From Thermoanaerobaculia bacterium (GTDB taxonomy: Bacteria > Acidobacteriota > Thermoanaerobaculia > UBA5066): a DNA stretch of 64,000 bases. The DNA is taken from assembly GCA_963816185.1 (NCBI GenBank), contig CAWFJJ010000001.1, positions 224,001-288,000 of the forward strand, written 5' to 3'. The notes below the pieces were generated by a model, which ran no database searches, was not told where the DNA came from, and saw only the letters and a list, made by a program, of their open reading frames with translations. Below, piece by piece: positions 6,491-59,749 of the stretch (position 1 is its first letter; each line of letters starts with the position of its first letter). The position numbers and the translations under genes were made by a program.

Positions 6491-6596
6491 TTTCTTAGAA
6501 TGCTAATATGATATCCGTGTGGCGTTGATCCCATAATTGTGACATAGTGGCGCATAGCTAGCCTTGGCTGCCCTGCCCATATTACCTTCTAAGAAA
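6491..6596. repeat. Inverted pair of TTCTWAGAA motifs (pair A)
   Basis: TTTCTTAGAA 6491-6500 and TTCTAAGAAA 6587-6596 in an AT-rich patch. Confidence 0.85.
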
Positions 6597-6656
6597 CCTA
6601 ATCTTTCCAACATCTTACATCAGCTTCGGCAGCCTCGAAATCGGCGCGCGGATCAT

Positions 6657-6671
6657 TGGCTTGACCCTTGC
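6657..6671 (+). promoter_or_regulatory. Candidate sigma54 -24/-12 promoter
   Basis: TGGC-TTGACCC-TTGC matches TGGC-N7-TTGC; GGAGG at 6688 and ATG at 6700 follow. Confidence 0.6.
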
Positions 6672-6699
6672 GATGCGGGTGTCAACCGGAGGCACCCAG

Positions 6700-6972
6700 A
6701 TGTTCAGAGAGGGCGGAATCAAGGCTGAGGCGGCAAGCGTGTCGGAGCACGCGTCATCCATGCCTGGGCGCTCCTCTTTTGCCGCCGCGCCCTCATTTTC
6801 CGAAGCTGATTCTTCCGCATCCGTCACTGCGTCTCTCCCCGTCTGGATCCGCGCGTCACACGTCACCCTCTCTCTCCTTCTCGCCGAGACCGCCGTCTTC
6901 GCCCTCGCCGCTGCGTCGGGTAAGATCCCTTCGTTCCTCTTCACAGCGATTCGCGCGCTCCTGACGTTCTAG
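6700..6972 (+). CDS. Small hypothetical protein (90 aa), Ser/Ala-rich N-terminus and hydrophobic C-terminus
   Basis: GGAGG RBS 7 nt before ATG; ends just before the rsbW-like gene; no recognisable domain. Confidence 0.45.
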   Translation: MFREGGIKAEAASVSEHASSMPGRSSFAAAPSFSEADSSASVTASLPVWIRASHVTLSLLLAETAVFALAAASGKIPSFLFTAIRALLTF

Positions 6973-7000
6973 GGCTCTGAGAGGGGATTGCCGAAAAGCA

Positions 7001-7438
7001 ATGTCGTCGGTCGAGCGTCGCGAGGTGCACATGACCATTCCGGTTGCGCCGGAAATGGAGATTGCCGCCACGGCACAGGTCTCGGCGCTCGGCGAGTGGA
7101 TGGAAATGGGCCGCGACAAGATCGACGAGGTGAAGATGGCCGTCGTCGAGGCCTGCATCAACGCGTTCGAGCACAGCGCGACGCCGGACCGCAAGGTCGA
7201 GCTCTCCTTTCGCGTAGGAGCCGAGGAGGGCGGCCGGGGCGCCTATCTCGAGGTCGACGTGGCGGACGCGGGCCACGGGTTTGATCCGACCCGGCTCAAG
7301 ACCCCTGAAATCGCAGCCGCGCTCAGGTCCAGCCGAAAGCGCGGCTGGGGCATCAAGATCATCGAAAGCCTGATGGACGACGTCCGGATCGAAAGCGGCG
7401 AGCATGGCACCCGCATCGTCATGCGCAAATATCGATAA
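7001..7438 (+). CDS. RsbW/SpoIIAB-like anti-sigma factor Ser kinase (HATPase_c_2)
   Basis: N-box EACINAFEH, D-x-G-x-G (DAGHGFD), RGWGIKII. Confidence 0.9.
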   Translation: MSSVERREVHMTIPVAPEMEIAATAQVSALGEWMEMGRDKIDEVKMAVVEACINAFEHSATPDRKVELSFRVGAEEGGRGAYLEVDVADAGHGFDPTRLKTPEIAAALRSSRKRGWGIKIIESLMDDVRIESGEHGTRIVMRKYR

Positions 7439-7453
7439 GGTATAAAGGACCGA

Positions 7454-7816
7454 ATGAGCGAGACCTTGAAAGTCGTCGTAGACCGGCCGGACGTCAACGT
7501 CGCCGTTCTCCGCACGGACGGCTACATCAACAATACCGGCGGCGAGGAGATCGCCAAGCAGGCTTACGCTCTCCTCGGGACGGGCGTGAATCGCCTGCTC
7601 CTCGACCTCGAGAAGACGAAGATCGTCAATTCGATCGGCATTTCCATTCTCATCGAGATTCTGGAAAAGCTGCTCGACCAGGGGGGAAAGCTGGCTTTCT
7701 GCCGGTTGACACCCACGATCGAGAAGACTTTCCAGATCATGGGGCTGGCCCAATATGCGCGCATCTTCCCCGCTCCCGAGCCCGCCCTCGCCTGGCTCCG
7801 GGGCGAGACCGAGTAG
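7454..7816 (+). CDS. STAS-domain anti-sigma antagonist (RsbV/SpoIIAA-like)
   Basis: LLLDLEKTKIVNSIGIS with the conserved phospho-acceptor Ser; FQIMGL. Confidence 0.9.
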   Translation: MSETLKVVVDRPDVNVAVLRTDGYINNTGGEEIAKQAYALLGTGVNRLLLDLEKTKIVNSIGISILIEILEKLLDQGGKLAFCRLTPTIEKTFQIMGLAQYARIFPAPEPALAWLRGETE

Positions 7817-9425
7817 CGCGGCGATCTCCGGGTCGCCCGCCACGGCTGCCGACCGGGACAACGCGATCCTCGCGGCGCACCGGAAGCTCGCGGAGCTCGA
7901 CCCGTTTTCCGATCGCGAGCGGCTCTTCGAGGGGATCCTCGCTGCGCTCCTGACGGCGGCTCACGCCGAGCGAGGCGTCCTCGTGGATCCCCAGCAGCCG
8001 CCGAGCTCCGCGGGTCAGGACGCCGTAAAGGCCGTCGAGGAGCCGGTCACGATCCCGCTCACCGCGCGGGACGAGACGCTCGCGCTTCTCAAGCTCGAGA
8101 AACCTCCCCTCGATCCGATCGGCTTCGCGTCGGTCACGGCCCACGCGGCGCGACTCCTCGATTCCGTGCGGATGGCCGACAAGGTGCAGAAGGCGGACTT
8201 CGAGCTGAAGTACAGGGTCTGGGAGCTGCAGAGCCTGTACGACGTCGGGCTCTCGATCGCGGGCACCCTCAACTTCGAGTCGCTGGCCGAGGACATTCTC
8301 TACAAGTCCATCTCGCTCCTCAACGCGCGCACGGGGACGCTCATCGTGTGCGACCGCGCTTCGGACGGCCCGGTCTACGTGCGCCATCTCGGCGAGCCGC
8401 TTCTCGACGGCGAGTCGGCACGGCTGCTCCCGTCGACGTCGCTCCGCTGCAACACGATCGCCGAGCGGGTGGGCCTGCTCGTGAACGCCCCGGCGGAAAA
8501 GCTCCTCGCCGTGCCGATCCTCGCCGACGGGCGCTGGCTCGGAGTCCTCATCGTGGCCGACAAGGAGAACCGGAACGGTTCGATCGACGACTTCACCGAG
8601 GCCGACGAGCGCGTCGCGTCGCTTTTCGCGAATCAGGCCGCGATCGCGCTCGAGAACGCGCGCCTCCACCGCGAGGCGGTCGAGAAGGAGAAGATGGAGC
8701 GGGAGATCGAGCTCGCCGCCTCCATCCAGAAGACGATTCTCCCGGAGACGCTTCCGGACGTGCCGGGGCTCCTCGTGGCCGGCGGGAACCGGCCGACGAA
8801 GCAGGTCGGGGGCGATTACTACGACGTCTATCCGCTCGCGGACGGGCGCACGGCGCTCTGCGTGGCCGACGTCTCGGGCAAAGGCGTGCCTGCGGCGCTC
8901 CTCGTGTCCACGGTCCACGCCTGCCTTCATCTCCTCGTGCCGAACCACGCCTCCGACCTTCCCGCTCTCGTGGCTCGCGTCAACCGTCATCTCGTGGGCT
9001 TCTCGTCCACCCGCAAGTTTGCGACGCTGTTCATCGCCGTCTACGATCCCGCCGCCGGGACGCTCACGTACGTGAACGCGGGCCACAACCCCGGGCTCTG
9101 GATCTCGCCGGAAGGCGTGACGCTGCTGCCGAGCGGCGGCGTGCCCGTCGGAATGATGCCGGGCGTCACGCACACGCAGGCCACGATTCAGATGGCGTCC
9201 GGCGACACGCTTCTCCTGTACTCCGACGGAATCACCGAAGCGCTGAACGGCGCCGACGAGGAGTTCGGCATGGAGCGTCTCACGGCGCTTGCCGTCGAGG
9301 GGCGCGCGCAGCCCCCGGCGGAGCTTTCCCGGCGCATCTTCGGCGCGGTGAGCGACTTCACGACCGGCGTCGCGCAATACGACGACCAGACGGTGCTCAT
9401 CGCGCGGGTCGTGCCGGCGGCGTGA
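7755..9425 (+). CDS. GAF + SpoIIE/PP2C (RsbU-like) phosphatase; start uncertain
   Basis: GAF ending FANQAAIALENARL; VGGDYYD, ADVSGKG, NAGH, YSDGITE, DDQT. Confidence 0.9.
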   Translation: MRASSPLPSPPSPGSGARPSSAAISGSPATAADRDNAILAAHRKLAELDPFSDRERLFEGILAALLTAAHAERGVLVDPQQPPSSAGQDAVKAVEEPVTIPLTARDETLALLKLEKPPLDPIGFASVTAHAARLLDSVRMADKVQKADFELKYRVWELQSLYDVGLSIAGTLNFESLAEDILYKSISLLNARTGTLIVCDRASDGPVYVRHLGEPLLDGESARLLPSTSLRCNTIAERVGLLVNAPAEKLLAVPILADGRWLGVLIVADKENRNGSIDDFTEADERVASLFANQAAIALENARLHREAVEKEKMEREIELAASIQKTILPETLPDVPGLLVAGGNRPTKQVGGDYYDVYPLADGRTALCVADVSGKGVPAALLVSTVHACLHLLVPNHASDLPALVARVNRHLVGFSSTRKFATLFIAVYDPAAGTLTYVNAGHNPGLWISPEGVTLLPSGGVPVGMMPGVTHTQATIQMASGDTLLLYSDGITEALNGADEEFGMERLTALAVEGRAQPPAELSRRIFGAVSDFTTGVAQYDDQTVLIARVVPAA

Positions 9426-10786
9426 GGTTCCGCGGAGGATCCCTCGCCGTGGCGGCGCTCGGCGCCCTTGCCTGCACGTTCTCGCGGGAGATCACGATCC
9501 TGCCTCACAGGCTCGAAAAGCCGCTCCCGAACGGGCTCGTGAACTCCTACAACGCCGAAGAGCAGCTCCAACGCGGTTACATCCCCGAGGTCTCCGAATT
9601 CCTCGCCGGACCGGGCGCCCGAACCCTCGACACCGTCCGCTTCGACCGCCTGGCCGGCCAGGTTCTTCTCGAGCGCGGCAACTTCCGCGGCGCCGCGTCG
9701 CGGCTCGAGCGTGCCCTGGCGGGCACGGGCCGCATGTCGGACCGCGCGGACCTCGCGTGGCTCCTGTCGCAGGCCGCCTACTGGGACGGAGACTTCTCGT
9801 CCGCGGGGCGCTGGGGGCGCGAGGCGCAGCGCGAGGGAAAACGCGTGCCGGACGGCTGGCTCGTCTTCCTGGAATCGCAGGGCGCGCGCGTCCTGTACGG
9901 CGGCGCGGCGGCGGGAGAACGCTTTTCGATCCCCGTCGCGTTCGGGCGGCCGAACCTCCTGCGCATCCCCGTGCGCGTGAACTCTCGTCCCGCCGAGGAG
10001 ATGGTCCTCGACTCGGGCGCGTCGCTGTCCCTCCTGACGGAGAGCGCGGCGGCCCGGCTGGGCGTGGCGTTCGTTCCGGGCGCGACGGCCGTCGCGAAGG
10101 GTCTGCACGAAAGGGACCTTCCCATGCGCCTCGGCTGGGTCGATTCCGTACGCGTGGGCGACCTCACGCTGACGGATGTCCCGGTCGGCGTCCTGCCCGA
10201 CGGCACGCTTACGTTCGCGACAGCTACGGCCGGGCTCTTCCGCCTGAACGGGGTCCTCGGTGTCCATCTCATGAAGGAGCTCGACTGGAGAATCGAGTTC
10301 AAAGACCGCCTCCTCCAGGCCCGACGCCTCGATCCGCACATCGTGCGCGGCTCGAAGGACCAGAATCTCTTCTTCCGGAGAATGAAGCCCATGGCGCGCG
10401 CCTCGCTCAACGGGCAGCCGTGGTCGCTCTTCCTTCTCGACACCGGGTCCGAGCCCTCGATGGTCACGCGCGGCGGGCTGAGCCGGACGCGCCTCTTCGA
10501 ACCGGCGGCGGCGTACCCGATCACGCTCGAGGGGATCGGGCAGTCGCGCGTGTCGTGGGCCAAGATCTCGAACGTGACGGTGGGGGTCTCGGCCTACATG
10601 GTCCGGTTCAAGGACATCGTCGTGAAAGAGGAGTCGGACGGGATCGAGGACGGCATCCTGGGCGCGTCTTTTCTTTCCTCGTTCGACGTGGAGATTCGTT
10701 TCGGCGCGATGACTCTCGTGCTCGAGAACCCGTTGGATCGATACCTCCGACAGAAGGAGGCGGCCTCGCAGGAGATCGCACGATAG
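9422..10786 (+). CDS. Putative lipoprotein with two retropepsin-like aspartyl protease domains
   Basis: GTG overlapping upstream stop; lipobox-like ALAC; LDSGAS and LDTGSE motifs, each followed by G-x-LG. Confidence 0.8.
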   Translation: MRFRGGSLAVAALGALACTFSREITILPHRLEKPLPNGLVNSYNAEEQLQRGYIPEVSEFLAGPGARTLDTVRFDRLAGQVLLERGNFRGAASRLERALAGTGRMSDRADLAWLLSQAAYWDGDFSSAGRWGREAQREGKRVPDGWLVFLESQGARVLYGGAAAGERFSIPVAFGRPNLLRIPVRVNSRPAEEMVLDSGASLSLLTESAAARLGVAFVPGATAVAKGLHERDLPMRLGWVDSVRVGDLTLTDVPVGVLPDGTLTFATATAGLFRLNGVLGVHLMKELDWRIEFKDRLLQARRLDPHIVRGSKDQNLFFRRMKPMARASLNGQPWSLFLLDTGSEPSMVTRGGLSRTRLFEPAAAYPITLEGIGQSRVSWAKISNVTVGVSAYMVRFKDIVVKEESDGIEDGILGASFLSSFDVEIRFGAMTLVLENPLDRYLRQKEAASQEIAR

Positions 10787-10787
10787 A

Positions 10788-11555
10788 ATGAGTCGCGTGC
10801 AGGGGCGCCATCCACGGGGAGCGGCGGCGGCCGCGGCGCTCGCGGCAATGAGCGTCCTCTACGCGGGAGGGTGCCGGGGTCCGGCCGATCCTATGCAGAA
10901 GAAGCGGAACGACATGGTCGAGCACCAGATCGTCGCGCGCGGGATTCGGGATCCGCGCGTGCTCGAGGCGATGCGCACCGTGCCACGCCACCTTTTCGTC
11001 CCGCCGGCGGAGGAAGCGTCCGCGTACGACGACCGGCCGCTGCCCATCGGAAGCGGTCAGACGATCTCGCAGCCCTATGTCGTCGCCTTCATGGCCGAGC
11101 AGCTTCGCCTGACCGGGAAGGAGAAGGTCCTCGAGATCGGGACGGGCTCGGGCTATTCGACGGCGATCCTCGCGGCCGTGGCCTCGAAGGTCTTCTCGAT
11201 CGAGATCCGCCCCGAGCTGGCGCGTCTGGCGAAGGAACGTCTCGAAAAGCTGGGCATCAAGAACGTCGAGCTGAGGGCGGCCGACGGCTATCGAGGCTGG
11301 CCGGAGGAAGCGCCGTTCGACGCGATCGTCGTCACCGCCGCTCCGGAGCGGATCCCGCCCCCGCTCCTCGAGCAGCTCGCCCCCGAAGGGCGGATGGTGA
11401 TCCCGGTCGGCGCGTTCTATCAGGAGCTGAAGGTCATCAAGCGGCAGGGCGGAGGCTACTCGGAGAAGAGCGTCCTTCCCGTGCGGTTCGTGCCTCTCGT
11501 GGGCGAGGCCGAAGGAAGCGCGCCTCCGGCCCGCGACCCCGGGACCTCGCGATGA
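10788..11555 (+). CDS. pcm: Protein-L-isoaspartate O-methyltransferase
   Basis: VPRHLFV, GQTISQPY, VLEIGTGSGY, APFDAIVVTAA, VRFVPL. Confidence 0.93.
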   Translation: MSRVQGRHPRGAAAAAALAAMSVLYAGGCRGPADPMQKKRNDMVEHQIVARGIRDPRVLEAMRTVPRHLFVPPAEEASAYDDRPLPIGSGQTISQPYVVAFMAEQLRLTGKEKVLEIGTGSGYSTAILAAVASKVFSIEIRPELARLAKERLEKLGIKNVELRAADGYRGWPEEAPFDAIVVTAAPERIPPPLLEQLAPEGRMVIPVGAFYQELKVIKRQGGGYSEKSVLPVRFVPLVGEAEGSAPPARDPGTSR

Positions 11556-11830
11556 GCGCCGTGAAGGCGCTCACGAATTCCTCGGTCCTTCTCGAACGAG
11601 TGCCCGTCAGGGAGCGCGGCGCGTCGCTGACGCGCTCCGCGTGGCGAATCGCGGTGACGGCGGATGAGGGCGCGGGCACGATCGTCCGTCTCGAGGTGTC
11701 GGACGGCGCGGTTCATTTCCGCGGCGACGGCCTGTTCCTCGGCTGGGGCGCGGAAGACATGCGCGCCGCCTGGGACGCGCTCGCGCGCTCGGATGCCGCG
11801 CCAGAGCCGGAGCTCATGCAGCTCGGCTAG
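11552..11830 (+). CDS. Hypothetical protein (92 aa)
   Basis: ATGA overlap with the pcm stop; plausible globular composition. Confidence 0.6.
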   Translation: MSAVKALTNSSVLLERVPVRERGASLTRSAWRIAVTADEGAGTIVRLEVSDGAVHFRGDGLFLGWGAEDMRAAWDALARSDAAPEPELMQLG

Positions 11831-13735: not shown

Positions 13736-13736
13736 C

Positions 13737-16025: not shown

Positions 16026-19000
16026 TCACGCCTTCTCGAGCTTGACGAGGAAGGTCTTGTACTCCGGCGTCCAGGTGTTCGGGTCCATGGCCGAGGGCGT
16101 CAGGAAGTTCGCGAGCGGGCCGGTATGACCGGCTTCGCCCTCGTAGCCCCAGTGGAGCGGGAAGCCGATCTGCCACATCGCCTGCCCGTTGACCTTCAGA
16201 GGGCGCAGGCGCTTCGTGACCATCGCCACCCCTTCGACGGAGCCGCGCGCCGACGTGACGCGGGCGCGCCCTCCGTTGACGATGCCCTTCTCCTTCGCGA
16301 GATCCTCCGGGATCTCGATGAAGAAGCCCGGCTGCTCCTGGTTCAGGCGATCGATGTGCTTCGTCCAGTAGTGGTAGTGCTCCGTGAGGCGGTACGTCAT
16401 GCAGACGATCGGGAACTGGTCGCGTTTGCCGTAAATGTCCTTGTCGGACTTGAACTTCTTCGTGGCCGGATTGGAGGTCACCTTGGGGTGCAGGGGGTTG
16501 TCGCACGGGGCTTCCACCGCCTCGTAGTGCTCGGGGAACGGGCCGTCGTTCAGGGGTGCGAAAAGCTTGCCGACGCCTTCGGGCAGCATGATGAAGGCAC
16601 CGAACGTTCCCGGAGGCGCGTCGGGCTTCATATCGGGTACATCGCCGACCCACTTCGCGCCGTTCCACTTGATGCCGGCCCGCGTCGGATCCCAGGGCTT
16701 GCCCTCTGCGTCGGCGGAGGCGCGGTTGTACATGACGCGCCGGTTCGCCGGCCAGGAGAAGCACCAGTTGTGGTACATGCCGAGGCCGCTCGCATCGTCC
16801 ACGGGGTTGCGCCTCTGCGTCAGATTGCCCGCCTCGGTGTAGCAGCCCGACATGAGCCAGTTGCCGCACATCGTCGAGCCGTCGTCCTGGAGCTGCGTGA
16901 ATCCATCGAGCTGCTGGCCGGCCGCCTTGATGAGCTTGGTCTTGTCCTTCGGGTCGTGGATGTCTTCGAGGGCTTTGCCGTTCAGCTCCTTCAGGACCTC
17001 GGACAGGTCGGGCGCAGCCGGATTTGTGTAGGCCCAATCGACGTTCAGGACCGCCTCCGCCGCGGGGCCGCCTTCCTTCCGGTAGAGGTCCCGGACGGCG
17101 AGGAAGATCCTCGCGAGGATCTCCTGGTCCGTCTTGATCTGCCCCGGAGGATCCAGGGCCTTCCATTTCCACTGGATCCAGCGCGCGGAGTTCGTGAAGC
17201 TGCCGTCCTTCTCCGCGAAGTTGGACGCGGGCAGCTGGAAGACCTCGGTCTGGATCTTCGAGGGCTCCGCCCCGCCGTACTCCTTGGGGGCCTTCCAGAA
17301 GGTCGCCGTCTCCACCTGGTGGTTCTCGACGACCACGAGCCACTTCAATTTCGAGTGCGCGGCGATCATTTTCGGCGTGTTCGGCCCGATGCCGACGGGG
17401 TTCATGCCGAAGGTCATGAGCCCCTCCGGGCCGGGCTCCTGACCGCCGGCGCGGCTCGAGTTGCCGCGGTACATGTCGTCGAAGATGAACATCCAGGAGT
17501 AGTTGCCGTCGACCTTCGGAAGCCAGTTGTATCCGAACTCGTTCTCCTTCGTCGCGTTCTTGCCGTAGCAGGCCTTCAGGACCGAGACCATGAACTTCGA
17601 GTAGTTCTGCCAGTAGTTCATGGACGGGCCGAGCGCTTTCGGAGTGTTCGCCTCGACGTACTCCTTGAGCGATTGCCAGGGCGCCTGGGGCGTCTTGACG
17701 TACCCCGGCAGGATGTCGAAGACGCCCGCCGTGTCGGTCGCACCCTGGATGTTCGAGTGGCCGCGCAGCGCGTTCACGCCGCCGCCCGGCCGGCCCACGT
17801 TACCCAGCAGGAGCTGCAGCATCGCGGCCGTGCGAATGATCTGGACGCCGATCGAGTGCTGCGTCCAGCCGAGCGCGTACATGATCGTGCCGCAGCGCTC
17901 GGCGTTGCCCGTCGACGTCACGACCTCGGCGACCTTGAGGAACGTCTCTTTGGGCGTGCCGCAGACCTTCTCGACCATCTCCGGCGTGTAGCGGTCGACG
18001 TGCTTCTTCAGGAGCTGGAAGACGCAGTTCGGGTCTTCGAGGGTCGGGTCCTTCTTCGCCTCTCCCTTCGCGTCGAGCTGATACGCCCACGTGTCGCGCT
18101 TGTAGCTGCCCGACGCCTCGTCGAAGCCGGAGAAGAGGCCGTCGTCGAACTTGAAGTCGGCATTGATCAGGAGGGGCGCGTTCGTGTGGATCCTGACGTA
18201 GTCCTCGTGGAACCTCTTCTTGTCGATCGCGTACCGGATGATGCCGAGCAGGTACGCGATGTCCGTGCCGGCCCGGATCGGGGAGTAGACGTCGGCCACG
18301 GCCGCGGTCCGCGTGAAGCGCGGATCCACCGCGACGATTTTGGCGTTACGCGTCTTCTTGGCCTCGATGGCCCACTTGAAGCCGCAGGGGTGGTTCTCGG
18401 CGGGGTTCCCGCCCATGCAGAGGACGACGTCTGCGTTCTTGATGTCGACCCATCCGTTCGTCATCGCTCCGCGCCCGAACGTGGCGGCCAGACTGGCCAC
18501 CGTGGGGCCGTGTCATACCCGGGCCTGAGTGTCCCGGTACGGCACCCCCCAAGCCGATGCGGACTTCCAGTAGAGGAAGTTGAACTCCGTCGTGTCGGTG
18601 CAGCCTCCGATCATCGCCATGCCGGGGTTGCGGTTGACGACCTGCCCCTTGGCGTTCTTCGCGACGAAGCTCTTGTCGCGGGTATCCTTGACGTGGCGAG
18701 CGATCTTCGCGATCGCCTCGTCCCAGGAGATGTCCTCCCAGTGATCGGATCCGGGCTTGCGGATCTGGGGCGTCTTGAGGCGGGTCGGGCTGTTGATGTC
18801 GTCCTTGACGGTCGCGCCCTTCGGACACAGCGTGCCGCGGTTGATCGGATGGTCGGGATCGCCCTCCACGTGGACGACCGACGCCGTGGCGTTCTTGGCC
18901 TTGTCCCCCAGCGTGTGGATGATAAGACCGCACGAGACCGCGCAGTAAGGACACGTACTGCGCGTTTCCGTCGTGCGCGAGATCTTGAACTCTCGCATCT

Positions 19001-19088: not shown

Positions 19089-19191
19089 AACACCCCTCCT
19101 CGACTGACTGGCTGGATGGGCCTAGCAGATCAATGAACGGGGCTCAATGTCAAGACCGGTTCTCAGAAGGCCTGTTAACGCGTGACCCACG

Positions 19192-47313: not shown

Positions 47314-48649
47314 GTGAAGCCGGATGTCGTCGTCGTGGGAGGGGGCGCGGCGGGCCTTCTCGCGGCGCTGGCGGCGGCGCGCGGCGGCCGGCGTGTCCTC
47401 GTGCTCGAGGCGGCGAAGGACGCCGGCCGGAAGATCCTCGTGTCCGGCGGCGGCCGCTGCAACGTCCTCCCGATGGAGGACGCGCCCCAACGCTTCGTCT
47501 CCGAGTCGCCGAACCGCCTCGTGCGCCGCTTCCTCGACCGGTGGCCGCTTTCAGGCCAACGCTCGTTCTTCGAGGAACTTCTCGGGGGGAAGCTCCGAGA
47601 GGAGCCCGAGACCCGGAAGCTCTTCCCGCCCTCGAACCGCGCGAAGGACGTGCGCGACGCGCTGTGCGAGGCGCTGGCGGCCGCGGGAGGGACGCTGCGC
47701 GCGGCGGCGAGAGTGCGTCGACCTCGTGCGCGCGGGCGAGGGCTTTTCCTTTCGCCTCGACGGAGACGAGGAGATCGCCGCGCCGCGCGTGATCCTCGCG
47801 ACCGGCGGGCGCTCCGTCCTCGCGGGGGGAGCGGACGCGGCGGGTTACGCGTGGGCCGCCGCGATGGGCCATACGGTCCGGCCGACGTACCCGGCGCTCG
47901 TGCCTCTCACGGGCGACGCGCCGGCCCATCACGCGCTCGCGGGCGTCTCGGTCGCGGCGCGTGTTACCGCGCAGAGCGAGAAAGAGCGTGCGACGTCGAG
48001 CGGCGGCTTCCTCTTCACGCACAAGGGCTGGAGCGGCCCTGCGGTCCTCGACGTCGCGCACGTCGTCGAACGCGCCGCGCTCGCGGGAGCGAGCGCCGAA
48101 GTCCGGGTCTGCTTCGGATTCGGAGAAGGACGAAGAAAGGAGGAAGACGAAGAGAAGATTTCTTTGAATCGTCCCGTGCAGGGGGGAACGGCCTCTTCAT
48201 CCGGCCGGGCCGACACAGCCGCAAGGTGGGATGCCGCCCTACGCAGCGGCGGGGTTTCCTGCGGCTCCCTCTCTCTTTCTTCCTTTCTAAGCAAATCTTC
48301 TTCTTCTCTTCCCGACCGTCTGGTCCGCCTGATCCTCGAAACAGCACGGGTCCCGGATGTCCGACTCTCTTATCTTTCGCGCGAAGCGCGCTTGCGCGTC
48401 GTGGAAACGCTGACCGCGTTTCCGCTCCCCGCGACGGGGACCGAGGGCTATCGCACGGCGGAGGTGACCGGGGGCGGTGTCGCTCTCGAGGAGGTGGACC
48501 CCGGAAGCGGGCGCAGCCGGCTCGTGCCGGGCCTTTTTCTCGCGGGCGAGATCCTCGATGCCTTCGGCCCGATCGGTGGCTTCAACTTCCAGTGGGCATG
48601 GGCGACCGGCCGCACCGCCGGCGAAGCCGTGGCGCGCGCCGGAATCTAG
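47314..48649 (+). CDS. HI0933/BaiN-family flavoprotein, frameshift near 47716
   Basis: GGGAAG, GRKILVSGGGRCN, ATGG, FTHKGWSGP, VTGGGV, GEILD..GGFNFQWA. Confidence 0.88.
48150..48310. repeat. Degenerate inverted TTCTWAGAA pair inside the flavoprotein CDS (pair B)
   Basis: gaagaTTTCTTTGAA (48159-48168) and ctTTCTAAGCAAatcttcttc (48285-48293) with purine and pyrimidine halos. Confidence 0.65.
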
Positions 48650-49325: not shown

Positions 49326-49676
49326 TCAGCCTTTCACCGAGAGATTCTTAGAAGGAAGAAGAACACGGAGGCGCTCGCGCCACTCGCCTTGAAGCTCGAT
49401 CGTGGCGCCCACGACCGAGCCGCCAGTGCCGAGGGACTTCTTGAGTTCCTTCGCTAATCCTTCTAAGAAATCCGAATTCTCCGGAAGTCCGTAGAGAACC
49501 GTCACCGTCTTGCCGCTCCGCCCCTTTTTTTCGATCCGCAGCCTGACGACGACCTTCGAAGGGATCTCTTCCTCCGCCTTCGAGGAACATCTGCATTGAT
49601 CCGAGGGCCAGCCGCATGTAGCGCAGACGCGCCCGACGGCCGTGGAATAGACGAGCCGGACAGGGTCCTGCCTCAC
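49326..49676 (-). CDS. yciH: SUI1/YciH translation initiation factor homolog
   Basis: LVYST, CxxC..CxC, KGRSGKTVT, LKKSLGTGG, IELQG. Confidence 0.88.
   Translation of the reverse strand: MRQDPVRLVYSTAVGRVCATCGWPSDQCRCSSKAEEEIPSKVVVRLRIEKKGRSGKTVTVLYGLPENSDFLEGLAKELKKSLGTGGSVVGATIELQGEWRERLRVLLPSKNLSVKG
49345..49470. repeat. Inverted TTCTWAGAA pair inside yciH (pair C)
   Basis: TTCTTAGAAgg 49345-49353 and ccTTCTAAGAAa 49461-49469. Confidence 0.85.
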
Positions 49677-51984: not shown

Positions 51985-54179
51985 ATGCCTCCCGCGAGAA
52001 ACGGCCTCTTCCTGGGCCGGGCCGTCGACCCGGCTTCGGGAAAGACCGGCGCCGAGCCTTTCCTCCTCGACCCCGCCGACCTCACGACGCACGGCCTCAT
52101 CGTAGGCATGACGGGGAGCGGCAAGACGGCGCTCGGCATCGTCCTGATCGAGGAGCTGCTCTTGCGCGGCATCCCGGTCCTCGCGATCGACCCGAAAGGG
52201 GACCTCGGCAACCTGCTCCTCGACTTTCCGGGCCTTTCGCCCGCGGAGTTCGCGCCCTTCGTCGACCCGTCCGCCGGGACGCCCGAGTCCGAGGCGAAGA
52301 AGTGGTCGGAGGGCCTCGCGGGCTGGGGACTCCATCCCGCGGACGTCCGGGCGCTCGTCGACAGCCGGGACGCCGTGATCTTCACGCCCGGTTCGACGTC
52401 GGGAACGCCGGTCGACCTCTTCGGATCCTGTGCGCCTCCGCCGAAGGAGGCCGACGACGAGGACCGCCGGGACGTCGTCACGGCCTTCGTGGGAGGGCTT
52501 CTCACCCTCGCGGGCCGCGACGCGGATCCCGTGAAATCGCGCGACTTCATCTTCCTGTCGCTCTGCGTGACCGCGCTCTGGGAGAAGGGCGCAACCGCGA
52601 CGTTCGAGTCGCTTCTCGAGCTTGCGGCCTCGCCGCCTTTCGCGAAGGTCGGCGTGCTGCCCCTCGAGACGTTCTATCCCGCGAAGGAGCGGCAAGATCT
52701 CGTCCTCGCGGTCAATGCCCTCCTCGCATCGCCCGCGACGTCTGCGTTCCGCGAAGGGGAGCCGCTCGACGTCGGGCGGATGCTGGCTCCGACGCCGGCC
52801 GGCGGGAAAGCGCGGCTTTCGATCGTTTCGATCGCGCACCTCGGCGACGCCGAGCGAATCTTCGTCGTGGCGACGCTCCTTGCGCGCGTGAAAGCCTGGA
52901 TGCGCTCGCTGCCGGGCAGCCCCGCGCTCCGGGCGCTCGTCTACGTGGACGAGATCTTCGGGTTCTTCCCGCCCTCGGCCGAGCCGCCCACGAAAAGGCC
53001 GCTCCTCACGCTTCTCAAGCAGGCGCGAGCGTTCGGGGTGGGAGTCGCCCTCGCCTCGCAGAACCCCGTCGACCTCGACTACCGCGGCCTCGCGAACTGC
53101 GGCTGCTGGTGGATGGGCACGCTTCAGACCGAGCGGGACAAGCTGCGCCTCTCCGAGGGGCTCGTGGAAGCCGGCGGCACGGACGCCTCGGAGCTCCTGA
53201 CCAGGACGCGGAAGCGCGTCTTTCTCCTGAACGACGTGCACCGCAAGGAGCCCGCGCTCGTCGAGACGCGCTGGGCGATGAGCTATCTCCGCGGGCCGAT
53301 GACGAAGGCCGACCTCACGAGGCTGAAGGGTGCCGGCGGCGAGGCGACCGCGCCGCCGAGGAAGACCCCGGCGGAGTCGGCGGCGCCCGCCCTTTCCTCG
53401 GCTTGGCCGGTGCGATGGCTCGAGAAGCGGAATGCCGACATCGCATCCCCGTCGCTTTTCGTGAAGTATGCCGTGCGCTTCCATTCGGGTACGTCGTCTG
53501 CGCCGGAGATCACCGCCGCAAAGCTTTTCCCCCTCACAGCGGGGTCCCCCGCGGAAGTGCTGGAGACCGAACCCTCGACCTCGAGCCCTCCGGCCTGGAG
53601 TCGCTGAGAGCCGCCGCACCCGGCCGGCCGCTGCGATATGCGGACCTGCCCGCATGGCTCGGCGAAGGAACGGTGAAGGCCGTCGAAAAGGCGGTGCGAT
53701 CGCGGCTCCCCGACAAGCTCGCAACGACGCTCCTGAAGGATCCCGTCACGGGCGCGCTCTCCTCTCCGGGCGAATCGCCCGAGGACTTCGCGAAGCGCCT
53801 CGCGACGGGCACAGAGCCGCCGGCGGCTCTTCGCGAGAAGCTCGAGAAGAAGCGCCGCGATCTCGCGGCGGCCGAGGCCTCCGAGCAGGGGAGATCGATG
53901 GAGACTCTCGCGACAGGCGCCGCGGCGGCTTGGGACGTCGTCGGGGGGATTTTCTTTGGAAGAAAGAGAACGCTGCGCGTCTCGAAAGTCAGCTCGGTTC
54001 TGACGAAGAAACGGCTCGAGGACGCCGCGGACGCCAAAGTCTCAGGTCTTCGCGCCGAGGTCGCCTCGTTGGAGGAGAAGGTGGCTCCGCCGGACACGAG
54101 TCGCTTCGAGAAGGTGAACGTCGTCCCGGCCGCAGCACACGTGGACGTGCTGTCGATCGGAATAGCCTGGATCTGTTAA
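51985..54179 (+). CDS. DUF87/HerA-like P-loop ATPase, frameshift near 53580
   Basis: [43 protein letters not shown]; coiled-coil C-terminus in frame 52302..54179. Confidence 0.82.
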
Positions 54180-54196
54180 GAGAAGAGTAAGAAAGA

Positions 54197-54283
54197 TTTC
54201 TTAGAAGGTAATAGGGCTGGGGCAGCGCCGCCCTTGCCGCGAGGCGCCTGCCCTGCCCGAGAACGCATTCACTTTCTAAGAAA
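54197..54283. repeat. Hairpin element bounded by inverted TTTCTTAGAA/TTCTAAGAAA (pair D)
   Basis: Terminal inverted repeats plus internal GC stem gggctggggcagcgcc / ggcgcctgccctgccc; purine-rich left flank and pyrimidine-rich right flank. Confidence 0.85.
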
Positions 54284-54318
54284 CTCTTATCTTCGGTCTC
54301 TTTCTCTAGAATCCTCCC

Positions 54319-54690
54319 ATGCCCAAGATACCTCCCCGGAAGGAAGTGCTTGAGCACCCGCTCTACCGCGCGGCCATGGCCGCGCAGCACCTCGCCTATC
54401 AGCTCATGCGCGAGGTGCCGCCCGAGCACAAGGCCGCCGCGACGCGGCTGCACGCGTCGCTCGTCCACGCCACGACGTATGCAGCCTACGCGGTCGACCC
54501 GGACGTGCCCGACAAGGAGGCGCAGCGGGCGGGCCTCGCCGCGACCGCGGCCCGGGCGAAGGAGCAGCTCCAGCCGCTCGCCCAGTTCGCCGGCGACGCG
54601 CGCGACGTGGAGAAGCTGAGCGAAAAGATCAGCGAGCTGTCTTCGGCAGGGGAAAAGGGGCTCATTCCTCCCTCTTCGTCCCCAGGATGA
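54319..54690 (+). CDS. Divergent four-helix-bundle (23S rRNA IVP-like) protein
   Basis: LYRAA..LAYQL...P.E....RL..S pattern; TAGAAT 6 nt before ATG. Confidence 0.55.
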   Translation: MPKIPPRKEVLEHPLYRAAMAAQHLAYQLMREVPPEHKAAATRLHASLVHATTYAAYAVDPDVPDKEAQRAGLAATAARAKEQLQPLAQFAGDARDVEKLSEKISELSSAGEKGLIPPSSSPG

Positions 54691-55012
54691 CGAGCACGAT
54701 CAGGAGCAGGAGGACGATCAGACCGATGACGATCGTCGTCGTACGCGAAGAGCCTGCCGGCGACTCGGCTGCCGCGGCGTTCGACGTGGCGGCGGTCGCC
54801 GCCGCTGCCGTGGTCGGCTGCGGGGCCTCGCCCGTGGTGGGAGCGGCGGCCGCCGTCGAAGGAGCGCCCGTCGACGCCGCCGCGGGCGGGGCCGTCGCGG
54901 ATTCGGCGGGTTTCGGCGCGGCGGCCGTGCTGGCAGTCGACTGCGAACGGGCGGCGGACGAGACGAGGGCGAGAGCGAGGAGGAGGGCGGAGATCGCGGC
55001 GCGTGGCTTCAT
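54662..55012 (-). CDS. Small exported Ala/Thr/Pro-rich protein with C-terminal TM anchor
   Basis: Signal peptide, low-complexity stalk, IVIGLIVLLLLIVLVIL-GTKREE. Confidence 0.7.
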   Translation of the reverse strand: MKPRAAISALLLALALVSSAARSQSTASTAAAPKPAESATAPPAAASTGAPSTAAAAPTTGEAPQPTTAAAATAATSNAAAAESPAGSSRTTTIVIGLIVLLLLIVLVILGTKREE

Positions 55013-55066
55013 AGCGGATGAAACTATCGGGCGGACACCGAAGCGTCAAGCGGTCGGGGCGTGCGC

Positions 55067-56606
55067 GTGACGACGCTCCCGCGCGCGGGTTGGCGCCTCG
55101 ACGCGGCCGTTTTCCTCTCGGGCGCGGCCCTGATGGGCCTCGAGATCGTCGGGAGCCGCGTCCTCGCTCCGGTTTTCGGGACCTCGCTCTTCGTCTGGGG
55201 AGCCCTGATCACGACTTTTCTCGCGGCGCTCGCGCTCGGATATGCCTTCGGCGGGCGCCTGGCCGATCGCCGGCCCGACCCGGGAATGCTGGCCGCGCTC
55301 CTCGCGTGCAGCGGAATCCTGCTCTTCGCGGTCTTCTCGTCCCCTCAGGTCCTGCTCGCGGCGCTCGGCCGCGCCTCCGTTCCCGAGCGCTTTCGCCCGC
55401 TCGTCGCGGCCGTGATTCTGTTCGGCCCGCCCAGCGTCCTGATGGGGATGGTCACGCCCTTCGCGGTGCGCCTCGCCGCGAAGGAGATCGCGACGGTCGG
55501 CGCTGCGGCGGGCCGCCTGTCTGCGCTCTCCACGGCGGGCTCCATCCTGGGAACGTTCGCGACGGCCTTCTTCCTCATTCCGGCATTCGCGACCCGGCCG
55601 ATCCTCTTCGGCCTCGGCGCAACGCTTCTCGTGGCCTCGCTGCTCGTTCCCGTCCCGCGCTCGGCTGCACGGTTCGCGCTCGTTTCCCTCCTGGCGATCG
55701 GGGGCGCGGTCTCGTACCTTGCCGTGCCTTCGGATACGGGTTCACCCGAGCCGGCCGGGAAGGTCGTCTACGAGAAGGAGACGGCCTATCACCACCTCCG
55801 CGTCGTCGACGGGGGGCTCCGCCGCTCGCTCTATTTCGACGCTCGCCTGCAGGGCTTCATCGCCGTGCGGCCCGACCTCGTGCTGCACGAAGAACTATAC
55901 GGACGGCATGATGCTCGCGCTCCTTTTTCCCGTCCGGCCCGTCAAGACGGCCGTCATGATCGGTCTCGGGGCGGGCATGGTCCCGACCCTCCTTTCCGAG
56001 CGCGCGCCGGAGATCGCCACGACCTCGATCGAGATCGACCCCGAGGTCGTCGAGACCGCGCGGCGCTTCTTTCGATTCACGCCGGGCGCGAACAGCCGCG
56101 TTCTCGTGGGCGACGGCCGGCGTGAGCTCGACCGCCAGGTTCCGGCCGCCGACGTCATATTCGTGGACGCGTATTTCGCGGACAGCTTGCCTTTCCATCT
56201 CGTGACGAAGGAGTTCTTCGAGCTCTGCCATCGAAAGCTCCCGCCAGACGGCGTCCTCGCGATGAACTTCGGCGGCCTGCTGACGGGCCGGCGGAACGTC
56301 CTGTTCTGGGCGGCGGTCAAGACCGTCCGCCTCGTCTTTCCGCGCACGTACATCTTCTCGTCCGAGCTCGCATCGGGGCGAGCGACCTTCGCCTCGAACG
56401 CCATCCTCATCGCGACGCGATCTCCCGACGGCCTCGACAGGGCCACGATCTCCGACCGCGCCGCCGTGCTCGCGAAAAAGCTCTCACGCCCGCCCGTCGT
56501 GGACTGGGCGAACGAGCTTTACGACGGCGAGCTGAAGGTCGGGGATGTCCCGGTCCTCACGGACGCGTACGCGCCGACCGACGCGCTCCAGAACCTCACG
56601 CGATGA
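55067..56606 (+). CDS. Fused MFS-like membrane domain/spermidine synthase-like methyltransferase, frameshift near 55880
   Basis: LEIVGSRVLAPVFGTS, STAGSILGT, then IGLGAG, IEIDPEVV, GDGR, DAY, VLTDAYAP. Confidence 0.85.
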
Positions 56607-57619
56607 ATCGCCGGCTCCGTCTCGCGTGCGGGGTTTCCGCGCTCGTCGTCGCCGTGGCCTGCGCGCCTCGCGAGCGGCCCCCGGCGGTTTCCGCCTCCGA
56701 CCCCGCGGGCGAGACGCTCGAGGCCGACACGCGAGCGCTGTGCGCGCTCGGGCCGCGCGTGACGGGCTCCGATGCGTGCACGCGGGCGGAGGAATGGGCC
56801 GCCGCGCGCCTTCGCGAGTCGGGCCTCGCCGCGCGGCTCGAGCCCTGGGAGTGGCCTTCCCGCCCGCCCGGAGCCGCGATCCCGCGCAACGTGGTGGCGG
56901 AGCTTCCCGGCCGGGATCGGCCGGGCGAGATCGTGCTCCTCGCCGCGCATCTCGACACGGTGGCGGGAAGCTCCGGCGCGAACGACGATGCCGTGAACGT
57001 GGCGCTCGTCCTGGGCGTGGCTCGGGCGATGCGCGCGGCGGGCCCCGCTCGCCGGTCGCTGCGCTTCGTCCTCTTCACCGGAGAGGAGCAGAAGCTTCTC
57101 GGCTCACGGGCTTATGTGAAGGCGCACGCGAAAGAGCTCGGGGCGCACGTCCTCGCTCTCGTGTACGACCTCGGGTCCGCACGGACGCTGGGCTTTTACC
57201 TGAACGGACGGAAGCAGGACCTGCGCGCGCTCTTCATGCGCGCCCTGTCCACGCGCGAGGGCTCGGGCCGCCTCGTCGGCCTTTATTCCATCTGGGAGGG
57301 ATGCGACGCCTTCTCGTTCGTGGAGGAGGGAATTCCGGCGCTGACCGCCTACCAGGAGCTCGGGCCGTACCTTGCCGTCTACCACTCGGAAAGAGACAGG
57401 GTCGAGACGGTGAATTTCGCGGCGGCGCGCGAGAACGCGGCGCTCGCCTCCGCCCTCGTGAAAGGGGTGGCGGAAGACCCGGAGCCCGCGTTGCGCCGGA
57501 TGACGCCGGAAGAAACCGCGGCCCTCCTCGAGCGCCACGGACTCGGAAAGGCCCCTCCGGATGTCAGTGCGTCCGCCCGCCCGACCGTTCTTCCCGGAGC
57601 TGCGCCAGCTCGCCCCTGA
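56603..57619 (+). CDS. M28-family peptidase lipoprotein
   Basis: AVAC lipobox, AHLD, GANDDA, GEEQKLLGS, YHSERD. Confidence 0.85.
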   Translation: MNRRLRLACGVSALVVAVACAPRERPPAVSASDPAGETLEADTRALCALGPRVTGSDACTRAEEWAAARLRESGLAARLEPWEWPSRPPGAAIPRNVVAELPGRDRPGEIVLLAAHLDTVAGSSGANDDAVNVALVLGVARAMRAAGPARRSLRFVLFTGEEQKLLGSRAYVKAHAKELGAHVLALVYDLGSARTLGFYLNGRKQDLRALFMRALSTREGSGRLVGLYSIWEGCDAFSFVEEGIPALTAYQELGPYLAVYHSERDRVETVNFAAARENAALASALVKGVAEDPEPALRRMTPEETAALLERHGLGKAPPDVSASARPTVLPGAAPARP

Positions 57620-57929
57620 GAGCCGAGAGATCGCTCAGGAGACTCTCGCGGTCCGGCTCGGGGATCCCGGCGAGGGCGGGCTCGGAAGTCAGCAGCTTCG
57701 CCACCTCGGCTAGCTTCGTCTCGGCCAGGTCGAGCGCTTCCGCCACGTCGCTGCCCGGGAGATCGAGAAAAGCCTCCCCGACGAGCGACGGGACCGAGAC
57801 GGCGGCCTTCCGAAGCCGGGTCCCGGCCTCCGTACCCTTCGCCCCGGCGGCCTCGACCGCGGCGTACACGGTGTGAGCAAAACTCATTCCGCGCTTCCAG
57901 GTCGGGAGGTTCTTGTAGTGGCTCACCAT
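57564..57929 (-). CDS. Four-helix-bundle protein (23S rRNA IVP family)
   Basis: [27 protein letters not shown] resembles L-x-RAAVSIPSNIAEG. Confidence 0.7.
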
Positions 57930-58038
57930 CGTCATCCTAGTACGTTTGCATGGTCGCGGGCGTCGCAATCCCGGTGCTAGGCTCCTCGATATTCAGGCAC
58001 GTCTTTCGACCTTGACGTGCGAGGAAGGAGCGAAGCCA

Positions 58039-58965
58039 ATGCGACGCAAAGTCACTGTGATCGGTGCCGGAAATGTGGGCGCGACCGTCGCCCAGAGAAT
58101 CGTCGAAAAGGAGCTCGCCGACGTCGTCCTCGTGGACGTCATCGAGGGGGTCCCGCAGGGCAAGGGGCTGGACATGATCCAGTCGGGCGCCGTCGAGGGC
58201 TTCGACATGAGGATCGTCGGCTCGAACGGCTACGACGAGACCGCGGGGTCCGACCTCGTGATCGTCACGGCCGGTCTCGCGCGCAAGCCGGGCATGTCGC
58301 GGGACGACCTCCTGCACAAGAACGAGGAGATCGTCGCGAGCTGCATCTCGAAGACGACGCGCGGGTCGCGCGACCTGACCGTCATCGTCGTCACGAATCC
58401 GCTCGACGCGATGTGCGAGGTCGTCCGCCGCGTCACGAAGCTGCCCAAGAACAGGGTCATCGGCATGGCGGGAATCCTGGACAGCGCCCGGATGCGCGCG
58501 TTCATCGCGATGGAGCTCGGCGTCTCGATGACGAACATCCACGCGACCGTCCTCGGCGGACACGGCGACACGATGGTCCCGCTCCCGCGGTACTCCACGG
58601 TGGCCGGCGTGCCGATCACCGAGCTGCTGTCGCCCGAGCGCGTCGCGGCGATCGTCAAGCGCACCGCGGGCGGCGGCGCCGAGATCGTGAACCTCCTGAA
58701 GACGGGCTCGGCCTACTACGCCCCGTCCGCGGCCGCCGTCGAGATGACCGAGGCGATTTTCAACGACCGCAAGAAGATCCTGCCGTGCGCCGCGTACCTC
58801 GAGGGCGAGTACGGAATCAACGGCGTCTTCGTGGGCGTTCCGGTCGTGCTCGGCAAGAACGGAATCGAGAGGATCATCGAGCTCAAGCTCACGCCGGAAG
58901 AGTCCGCCGCCCTCAAGAAGTCCGCCAGCTCCGTTCAGGAGCTCGTCGGATTGCTGGCCGTCTGA
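58039..58965 (+). CDS. mdh: Malate dehydrogenase (LDH-like)
   Basis: [37 protein letters not shown]. Confidence 0.96.
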
Positions 58966-59000
58966 TTCCGTCCGACAACTGAGGGAGGAGACTCGATCGC

Positions 59001-59669
59001 ATGGCGGCTCCCGCGCACCTTCTGAACTCGTCGGTCGGCAAGAAGATCGTCATGGCGATCACCGGGATCGTCCTTTCGCTCTTCGTCCTCGGCCACATGG
59101 CCGGAAACCTGCAGGCCTTCCTTCCGAACGGCCCGGCGGCGCTGGACCACTACGGCGCCTTCCTGCGAGAGCTCGTGCACGGCACCGGAATCTGGTTCGT
59201 CCGGGCGGGGCTCCTCCTCGCGGTGGGCCTCCACATCTGGGCCTACCTCGGCCTCTCGCTGAAGAGCTGGGCGGCCCGGCCGCAGGGCTATCGGGTGACG
59301 GACTACGAGGAGGCCACGCTCGCGTCGCGCTCGATGCGCTGGACGGGCCCTCTCCTCGGGATCTTCATCGTCTACCACATCCTCCACATGACGACGGGCA
59401 CGCTCCACCCGCACTTCGTCGAGGGCAGGGTCTACCAGAACCTCGTCGCGGGTCTCACGCCCGTCGCCGTCGCGCTCTTCTATCTCGTCGCGATGGGCGC
59501 GCTCGCGTTTCATCTGTTCCACGGCGCCTGGAGCATGTTGCAGACCCTCGGCCTGTCGCACCCGAAGTACGACCCGTGGCGAAAGCGCCTCGCGATCGCC
59601 TTCACGATCGTCGTGGCCGGGGGTTTCGCCCTCGTCCCGATCGCGGTCCTCGCGGGGTGGCTGAAATGA
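59001..59669 (+). CDS. sdhC: Succinate dehydrogenase cytochrome b subunit
   Basis: [13 protein letters not shown], four heme-ligand His, [11 protein letters not shown]. Confidence 0.92.
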
Positions 59670-59676
59670 AGACACG

Positions 59677-59749
59677 GGAGAAGAAGAAGCTTTTCTTAGA
59701 AAGAAAGAATTCGGAGAAGAAAAAGATCTTCTTAGAAGGAAAGAGAGAC
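59677..59749 (+). repeat. Tandem direct pair of TTCTTAGAA motifs, 36-bp period (pair E), between sdhC and sdhA
   Basis: ggagaagaagaagcttTTCTTAGAAagaaag / ggagaagaaaaagatcTTCTTAGAAggaaag (cores 59693-59701 and 59729-59737). Confidence 0.85.

Follow-up and report, generated by a model that had tools for sequence, protein, structure and literature searches.

A polar, convergently paired 40-bp DNA signal in the genes and spacers of one Thermoanaerobaculia genus

A polar DNA signal of about 40 bp, with the word TTCTWAGAA at its core, recurs throughout the genome of a Thermoanaerobaculia bacterium (genome G000), in intergenic spacers and inside genes, and predominantly as two copies that face each other across DNA of arbitrary sequence. 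It came to attention in a 64,000-nucleotide stretch of this metagenome-assembled genome (MAG), hereafter the window (G000:C1:224001–288000, in an assembly of 5.09 Mb, 30 contigs and 67.2% G+C). The finding is real and strong: the signal is polar, paired and specific to one lineage, it has not spread by copying of the pair as a unit, and it was made in place and is constrained at the DNA level. The host genus comprises uncultured soil Acidobacteriota with GC-rich genomes, in which the motif is found even in essential genes. Eight exact cores lie in the window (positions 6492, 6587, 49345, 49461, 54198, 54274, 59693 and 59729), compared with 0.09 expected, and none of 100 dinucleotide shuffles attained eight; all eight had been listed in the original prediction, which was made from the window alone, and all were confirmed. 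With up to one mismatch the window holds 13 matches against 2.32 expected, a number likewise attained by none of 100 shuffles.

Genome-wide, TTCTWAGAA occurs in 337 exact copies, whereas an order-3 Markov model predicts about 5.6, and the twenty most over-represented 9-mers, homopolymers apart, are the motif itself or words that overlap it. Chance or base composition as its source is ruled out by this excess and by that over expectation and shuffles in the window. The homopolymers A9/T9 are themselves abundant (1083 over both strands, about 7 expected under the same model). When all 337 copies were oriented to one strand, they gave the polar consensus purine-rich-AGAT-TTCTTAGAA-GGKGAAKAGGG, which agrees with the consensus proposed from the window. 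The signal thus extends over about 40 bp, from a purine-rich tract beginning at about −20 through AGAT, TTCTTAGAA, GG and KGAAKAGGG to about +19, with G in 92% of copies at +10 and a weak 6-bp periodicity of GAA triplets on both sides of the core. Past about 20 bp from the core in both directions, the profile of oriented sites holds no information content; coding and intergenic sites share the same extended profile. Degenerate copies were recognised by scoring the flanks with a weight matrix, using the 99.5th percentile of 200,000 random positions as threshold; this accepted 291 of the 337 exact cores, together with 318 of the 1015 cores with one mismatch (5 expected) and 163 of the 4171 with two (21 expected), and left about 772 half-sites after de-duplication, or one per 6.6 kb. 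Flank scoring was preferred to an nhmmer search with a 45-column profile, which returned 367 hits and added almost nothing. Core position 6 is A in 291, C in 140, T in 43 and G in 12 cases, and the common variant cores are TTCTTCGAA (n = 140), TTCTTTGAA (n = 43) and TGCTTAGAA (n = 34), with TTCTTGGAA rare (n = 12). The mirror image of TGCTTAGAA, TTCTTAGCA, is also rare (6 copies genome-wide, a 2.9-fold excess). This hierarchy of variants is not a decay spectrum, and its asymmetry means that the core is read as a polar word and not as a palindrome. Several small contigs are 88–99% identical duplicates of parts of larger ones (C14 of C24:139–183 kb, C10/C11 of C1:148–158 kb and C22 of C1:286–296 kb), which points to a mixture of strains in the MAG and makes the motif counts slightly too high.

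The sites are also paired. Among neighbouring sites no more than 400 bp apart, 208 arrangements are convergent, 95 direct and 11 divergent, and the enrichment, polarity and pairing seen in the window all hold genome-wide; convergent doublets account for 416 of the 772 half-sites (54%) and for about 70% of the exact ones. Of the exact sites, 108 of 158 in spacers and 129 of 178 in genes had, on the inner side, a partner matching the core at eight or more of nine positions at a distance of 20–300 bp; on the outer side the numbers were 8 and 17, respectively. Spacings, counted without contig C14 (a near-duplicate of part of C24), have a single mode in intergenic pairs, 19 of 53 lying at 74–79 bp, and range from 47 to 340 bp in coding pairs, of which 9 of 106 fall in that band. 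No 10.5-bp ladder of the kind proposed for checking in the original prediction was visible. Other species of the genus show the same offsets, with pairs of the 12-mer TTTCTTAGAAGG 73–75 bp apart. A spike at 93 bp derives from one group of paralogous large Ser/Thr protein kinases, whose N-lobe (VAIKVLPEEFLEGEE...IYSFEEIP) contains the doublet at about 11 loci in G000 (e.g., C24:602899, C28:51683 and C23:2635), with cores varying between TTCTTAGAA and TTCTTCGAA. The functional unit is the convergent doublet, in which the GG sides of the two half-sites point inward to a spacer of arbitrary sequence. Singletons in genes are oriented without regard to transcription (68 on the same strand, 67 on the opposite one), and inspection of site clusters (at least four sites within 300-bp steps) indicated no obvious regulator gene.

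The signal is confined to one Thermoanaerobaculia genus and is weaker in a sister genus. The 9-mer is present in 79–346 copies in 18 of 18 members of the genus and in 0–4 copies in 12 genomes of two neighbouring families, a result that stands without the two unpublished genomes among the latter (G019 and G024). The 12-mer TTTCTTAGAAGG occurs 45–149 times in each of 11 genomes of the genus (11/11), is absent from six genomes of four other genera of the family and reaches at most two copies in 134 further genomes of the class. In three genomes of the sister genus g10 the 9-mer is found in 6, 23 and 45 copies, with doublets at 64–80 bp, and in the poorest of these (G074, 6 copies) the hisA halves have drifted to GC-richer codons, CTG/GAG and CTG AGG. 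Within G000 the sites lie on all large contigs, which rules out restriction to a macrodomain; the GC skew is too weak to locate origin or terminus. Three low-GC bins of 50 kb are nearly devoid of the signal, with 1 site in 150 kb where about 10 would be predicted (genome mean 3.3 per 50 kb). This scarcity indicates that the signal belongs to long-resident DNA.

About half of the exact sites (178/337) and 483 of the 772 scored half-sites lie in predicted genes, as called by our own codon-usage gene caller (4078 genes, 87% of the genome; approximate), at a density of 0.109 half-sites per kb compared with 0.445 per kb outside genes. In-frame use is restricted to the stop-free frames, in which one side is translated as F-L-E or L-R and the other as S-K-K/N or L-R. 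The sites break local codon usage, as had been noted for the window: TTA makes up 0.30% of the leucine codons in predicted genes (474 in all), and 47 of these 474 (9.9%) fall inside exact motifs. The genes concerned are of unrelated function and include hisA, ispE, aroD/E, recG, uvrA, uvrD, RNase R and protein kinases. Conserved domains run across the doublets of yciH (Pfam SUI1, residues 43–111, profile positions 4–75), aroD (DHquinase_I, residues 34–222, profile positions 23–230) and hisA (His_biosynth, residues 8–248, profile positions 2–227).

For two of these genes the comparison with relatives shows how the doublets came about. The yciH genes of relatives without the motif align free of gaps and have the same length, and across 15 sequences the site forms a series from GAT TTC TTA GAA to GAG TTC CTC GAA, with the exact gene-strand half TTCTTAGAA in 5 and the exact partner TTCTAAGAA in 3 of the 15. 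The hisA doublet has a spacing of 76 bp and lies over a conserved barrel strand and loop. It is present in all readable genomes of the genus (n = 19, not counting G015, which contains N, and G176, in which hisA is frame-disrupted), with an exact right core in 17, an exact left core in 12 and an unchanged spacing. Third-codon positions within the cores are conserved at 0.71–0.94, against a mean of 0.72 for the gene, in which 15% of third positions attain 0.94. Seven outgroup genera of the family have GCC GCG CTC GCG (A-A-L-A) and GAG CTC CTC GCG GAG where, at the aligned places, the motif genus has GAT TTC TTA GAA and CAC CTT CTA AGA AAA; each half must therefore have been built by at least five substitutions, plus one extra codon. 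The sister genus g10 has partial or exact forms, and the poly-serine tract encoded by the pyrimidine flank lengthens and shortens between species. The doublets in hisA and yciH thus arose in place by substitution and have been kept across the genus, and the signal is constrained at the DNA level inside genes. In G012 the segment between the hisA halves (loci L070/L077) appears as a tandem duplication of about 118 bp with a differing centre, which could reflect unequal exchange between half-sites or an artefact of assembling a strain mixture. Elsewhere the doublet goes with a net in-frame insertion, as in RNase R, where it brings about 25 extra residues relative to the RNB profile. The UvrD doublet (residues 662–715) lies between the UvrD_C and tudor domains.

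Between genes, the signal comes and goes as a whole. At the 14 loci orthologous to the intergenic doublet at 54198 (pair D), seven lack the element, four have both halves (one of them with a mismatch in the right core), two have one half and one has the right half beside a different repeat; the seven include L004 and L007, which, with 98 and 100 nt between anchors, fell below the length filter. The unit at this place is gained or lost as a block of about 140 bp, and comparison of filled and empty sites at 54198 revealed no direct duplication. Similarly, in a contig from an RNA library (X15) sdhC and sdhA are connected by 20 other letters where G000 has 142 bp (joint at 59656/59799); this contig therefore represents a relative without the element at this junction. 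The RNA sequencing runs contained at most 0.08 of the sampled words, and the contigs from four runs were short and mostly 90–95% alike, hence derived from relatives, and yielded no usable RNA ends. Sites occur at 0.29, 0.20 and 0.13 per kb in co-directional, divergent and convergent spacers, respectively. The central-metabolism regulon suggested in the original prediction did not hold up, given sites genome-wide in every intergenic context at similar densities across spacer types and about half of all sites in unrelated genes. A fixed-distance promoter was also rejected, there being no information beyond about 20 bp, and the TAGAAT that precedes the gene at 54319 is present in element-free relatives as well.

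We tentatively read the doublets as paired recognition sites in duplex DNA for a putative lineage-specific protein. Since enrichment, polarity and pairing were confirmed and no matching described system was found, this remains the best reading, as the original prediction had proposed. Each half-site would be recognised in fixed orientation as duplex DNA, and the protein, a dimer or higher oligomer, would grip both half-sites and bridge or wrap the 50–200 bp between them. Where the DNA can vary freely, the doublets favour a spacing of about 76 bp. A nucleoid or architectural protein would be one candidate, a domesticated transposase-like protein that binds sites resembling terminal repeats another. 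Over the age of the genus, either selection or drive has maintained the signal; we infer a protein reader, joint binding of both halves and a gain either to the cell or to the signal itself. Several points weigh against such a protein. The lack of a 10.5-bp ladder and the range of 47–340 bp in coding pairs are more slack than a rigid complex would suggest. Species of similar genome size differ about four-fold in copy number, as would sooner be expected of a selfish or driven signal than of a fixed architectural system. Weak selection per site would poorly account for a motif that takes at least five substitutions and has been built hundreds of times, also in essential genes, for which molecular drive would be more natural. 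The model gives no account of the purine and pyrimidine tracts, whose length changes between orthologues, and the split into coding and intergenic sites depends on our own simple gene caller.

A wider claim, possible but held with slightly more doubt, is that of a novel genome-wide recognition system, whose convergent polar doublets of 40-bp half-sites have been created by substitution hundreds of times, also within conserved domains of essential genes (hisA, ispE, aroD and yciH among them), and are held there against codon bias. If true, it would imply a sequence-specific machinery for recognition or uptake of self-DNA, for chromosome folding or for templated short-patch conversion, and would combine the geometry of hairpin-forming doublets of repetitive extragenic palindromic sequences (REPINs) with the mode of evolution of uptake sequences.

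Next in order of plausibility, and in our judgement unlikely, would be a self-recognition or uptake-type signal spread by molecular drive, comparable to the DNA uptake sequences (DUS) of Neisseriaceae and the uptake signal sequences (USS) of Pasteurellaceae. A competence or other DNA-handling system would prefer motif-bearing DNA, and recombination would fix motif-ward mutations wherever they are tolerated, with no need for a benefit to the cell. Such a signal would be expected to look much as observed in several respects: its abundance is very high and limited to one lineage, its density is greater in non-coding DNA (0.445 versus 0.109 sites per kb), it is free of transcription-strand bias and nearly absent from low-GC bins (1 in 150 kb versus about 10), and its copy number varies between species, with decay in G074. 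The available part of the literature on DNA uptake enhancing sequences (DUES) describes lineage-specific, polar and hyper-abundant words with a flanking consensus and no orientation bias, which arise gradually by point mutation of pre-existing sequence at coding and non-coding sites (65% and 35% within reading frames), all in likeness to the signal reported here, and for which that part names no known intracellular binding protein (PMC1939737). According to the same portion of that source, about 10% of DUES are inverted repeats (PMC1939737), whereas 54% of our half-sites stand in convergent doublets with a preferred spacing. The preponderance of 208 convergent over 11 divergent pairs would have no role in uptake, and neither the doublets nor their polarity would be accounted for. 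Established uptake signals also have densities several-fold above the one half-site per 6.6 kb found here. ComEC and DprA are present in the genome, which is uninformative because both are widespread. Four of 18 exact doublets in predicted genes are in DNA-repair genes (uvrD-like, recG, uvrA and an AddA/RecB-like helicase-nuclease), an anecdotal echo of the reported DUS bias.

Quite improbable is a third explanation, that the doublets are remnants of a non-autonomous mobile element, like a REPIN or a miniature inverted-repeat transposable element (MITE), whose terminal inverted repeats are the half-sites and whose transposase has been lost or was not assembled. The original prediction had offered the ends of a MITE/REP-like element as its second option, which is largely rejected by the evidence below. 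In its favour are the presence or absence of the intergenic unit as a block of about 140 bp and the in-frame insertions at some coding doublets (about 25 residues in RNase R; an indel of 29–33 codons in an HI0933-like gene). The geometry, too, recalls REPINs, which in Pseudomonas fluorescens SBW25 form inverted doublets of 71 and 110 bp, compared with about 76 bp here; in the portion of that report available to us, they likewise derive from the genome's most over-represented short word, have a spacer less conserved than the ends, are accompanied by singlets like decayed doublets, and are lineage-specific (PMC3116915). As far as that portion goes, REPINs differ in being extragenic, in forming hairpins with compensatory changes in replicating as a unit and in being tied to REP-associated tyrosine transposases (RAYTs) (PMC3116915), whereas here about half of the sites are in genes, the arms do not covary, the centres are unstructured and unique, no Y1 transposase was found and doublets originate in place.

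The evidence against a copied unit is of several kinds. The centres of 207 doublets are unique save for the duplicated contig C14/C24, the kinase paralogues, a nested second repeat and a few 23–30-nt hits near the E-value limit; there has therefore been no recent copying of the doublet as a unit. The centres have the G+C content of the genome (0.72–0.73) and fold no better than mononucleotide shuffles (30 each; z = 0.00, −0.46 and −0.49), so that terminator or hairpin centres were rejected. Arm identity is no higher within than between elements (7.82 versus 7.91 of 24 positions, and 6.20 versus 6.26 of 16; 1209 and 1224 of 2000 permutations attained the observed values), and pairs with an identical non-canonical core in both halves number 6, with 6.6 expected (contig C14 and the 93-bp kinase family excluded). 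The halves thus vary independently, and base pairing is not the selected property. A search for the Y1/RAYT transposase family PF01797 gave no match in G000 (94.9% complete), while a control search matched 6 of 14 reference genomes. Self-BLAST identified three multi-copy insertion sequence (IS) families of about 1.3–1.5 kb, with 4–8 copies each that are often nested near contig ends (e.g., C28:269659–270977, C2:6085–7596 and C24:333973–335409). The ends of all three (families A, B and C) are unrelated to the half-site, which excludes resident transposon ends as its source. Pairs of half-sites 0.4–6 kb apart enclose ordinary housekeeping genes and, by inspection of the translations, no transposase. 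The hisA and yciH doublets were made without insertion, orthologous copies are conserved where neutral sequence is saturated, and five of the six defining features of REPINs and MITEs that were tested were not found. Compared with MITEs in particular, there is no conserved interior, no target-site duplication and no parent IS with matching ends. The Neisserial intergenic mosaic elements (NIMEs) are variable units of 50–150 bp bounded by the 20-bp inverted repeat dRS3, a phage integration target; they resemble the doublets in having a variable unit between conserved inverted ends and, unlike our sites, are intergenic. Rickettsia palindromic elements (RPEs) are inserted copies of one conserved element that are tolerated in frame in protein-coding genes, and share with our sites the palindromic arrangement in frame inside genes; here only the ends are conserved, and at least some doublets arose by substitution.

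Least probable is an element acting at the RNA level, in which transcripts of the doublet would fold through their purine and pyrimidine arms into a long hairpin that serves as a processing, stability or translation signal, with the purine strand in addition complementary to the 3' end of 16S rRNA and its trailer (with two G-U pairs and a 4-nt bulge). Whole doublets do fold better than shuffles (z = −2.2 to −2.9; −3.84 for pair D), a symmetric doublet would serve transcripts of either direction, and the outward strand TTCACC-TTCTAAGAAATCT is similar to the 16S 3' end GATCACCTCCTTTCTAAGGGATCT, but the fold score follows from the shared consensus alone, the arms show no compensatory changes, singletons lack a strand preference, sites occur in divergent, convergent and co-directional spacers alike, no Rfam family matches, and the 16S similarity requires a gap and presumably reaches past the usual mature 16S 3' end. 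Aligned with the 16S 3' end and trailer GGATCACCTCCTTTCTAAGGGATCT (L080:3040–3075, G000:C1), TTCACC-TTCTAAGAAATCT has a contiguous match of 11 of 13 positions, then CACC after a 4-nt gap; the resemblance may be a coincidence or a clue to the origin of the signal.

Searches of the literature by the 9-mer and by Thermoanaerobaculia repeats, supplementary files outside their scope, found no published description of the motif in bacteria, in agreement with the earlier remark that it is not a recognised bacterial site. A partial counterpart is HIP1, the highly iterated palindrome GCGATCGC of cyanobacteria, a true palindrome that occurs singly, is over-represented in genes and spacers and is kept across species; to our knowledge it has no agreed function. 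Both are short words over-represented in the genes and spacers of one lineage and kept in place, whereas our signal is polar, about 40 bp long, flanked by purines and pyrimidines, and paired. Dispersed short repeats such as REP, DUS/USS and HIP1 are among the oldest unexplained features of bacterial genomes, each class with one mode of origin. The signal described here joins the doublet geometry of the mobile REPINs to a demonstrable origin by point substitution inside conserved genes, as in uptake sequences. Its decay from the genus to the sister genus provides a clean comparative test, in which candidate readers are those genes that motif-rich genomes have and that both the outgroups and the motif-poor sister genome lack. 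With the reader in hand, a major soil phylum would gain a new system of nucleoid organisation or self-recognition, or else a new kind of molecular drive would come to light, and the motif is a practical marker for assigning metagenomic contigs to the genus.

The window contains four inverted pairs, with spacings of 95, 125, 116 and 76 bp, and one direct pair 36 bp apart, all as originally described, and the names given to the neighbouring genes were mostly right by Pfam (isocitrate lyase, an RF-1-domain ArfB-like protein, citrate synthase, sdhC and sdhA, with yciH confirmed by SUI1). Pair A occupies the divergent intergenic region between the isocitrate lyase gene (minus strand) and a HATPase-domain gene (plus strand); its left half-site (6472..6511, plus strand; core TTCTTAGAA at 6492–6500) has a flank score of 4.7 and its right half-site (6576..6615, minus strand; core TTCTAAGAA at 6587–6595), 95 bp from the left core, one of 12.7. 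The left half-site of pair B (48130..48179, plus strand), whose core TTCTTTGAA at 48160–48168 has one mismatch, lies in frame within an HI0933-like flavoprotein open reading frame, in which relatives are 87–99 bp (29–33 codons) shorter here. The right half-site (48274..48313, minus strand; flank score 20.8) has the core TTCTAAGCA at 48285–48293, a frequent variant (TGCTTAGAA), after which comes a pyrimidine tract encoding SSSS. All four one-mismatch copies of the original prediction (48160, 48285, 19160 and 62563) are present in the window, as is an additional one at 60045, and 48285 alone passes the flank threshold. The copy at 48160 is credible despite its score because a purine tract precedes it and a partner lies 125 bp away; those at 19160 and 62563 are probably due to chance, as about two one-mismatch matches are expected in the window. 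Pair C lies inside the minus-strand gene yciH, with half-sites at 49345..49353 (plus strand), where the gene strand encodes P-S-K-N, and, 116 bp away, at 49461..49469 (minus strand), where it encodes D-F-L-E with the rare TTA codon. Pair D has the canonical spacing of 76 bp. Its left half-site (54178..54217, plus strand; core 54198–54206; flank score 17.8) begins directly after the stop codon of the upstream gene and includes a purine tract, its centre (54218..54262) is variable, GC-rich and not alignable between distant relatives, and its right half-site (54263..54306, minus strand; core 54274–54282; flank score 15.5) includes a pyrimidine tract; the downstream gene starts at 54319. Locus E (59673..59756, plus strand), in the sdhC–sdhA intergenic region, has two cores in direct orientation (59693–59701 and 59729–59737) and a two-mismatch copy at 59710; no convergent partner was detected. 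The similarity of relatives is interrupted at 59669–59800.

A second repeat family is dispersed through G000 (e.g., loci L104–L109) and consists of a GC-rich hairpin, ATATGCGGCGGCTGC-TGAT-GCAGCCGCCGATAG, to which about 35 of 62 word matches belong; it is regularly preceded by a purine tract and ATTTCTTTCT, like the left part of the main half-site. In about six cases the hairpin belongs to a larger unit, which has a 22-bp inverted repeat (CCTTGACATCGGTCATTCGGG) and lies between two halves of the main motif; the second repeat is also found in G012 at L005, the orthologue of window position 54198. An Rfam scan of the window gave a single match, unrelated to the motif, and no Rfam family fits the doublet. 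This match is a bacterial selenocysteine insertion sequence (SECIS) element (RF01989, 69.5 bits; 18460–18518, minus strand) in the 5' part of the large minus-strand gene at 16026–18500, a position that suggests a selenocysteine-containing gene of the formate dehydrogenase type split by an in-frame TGA.

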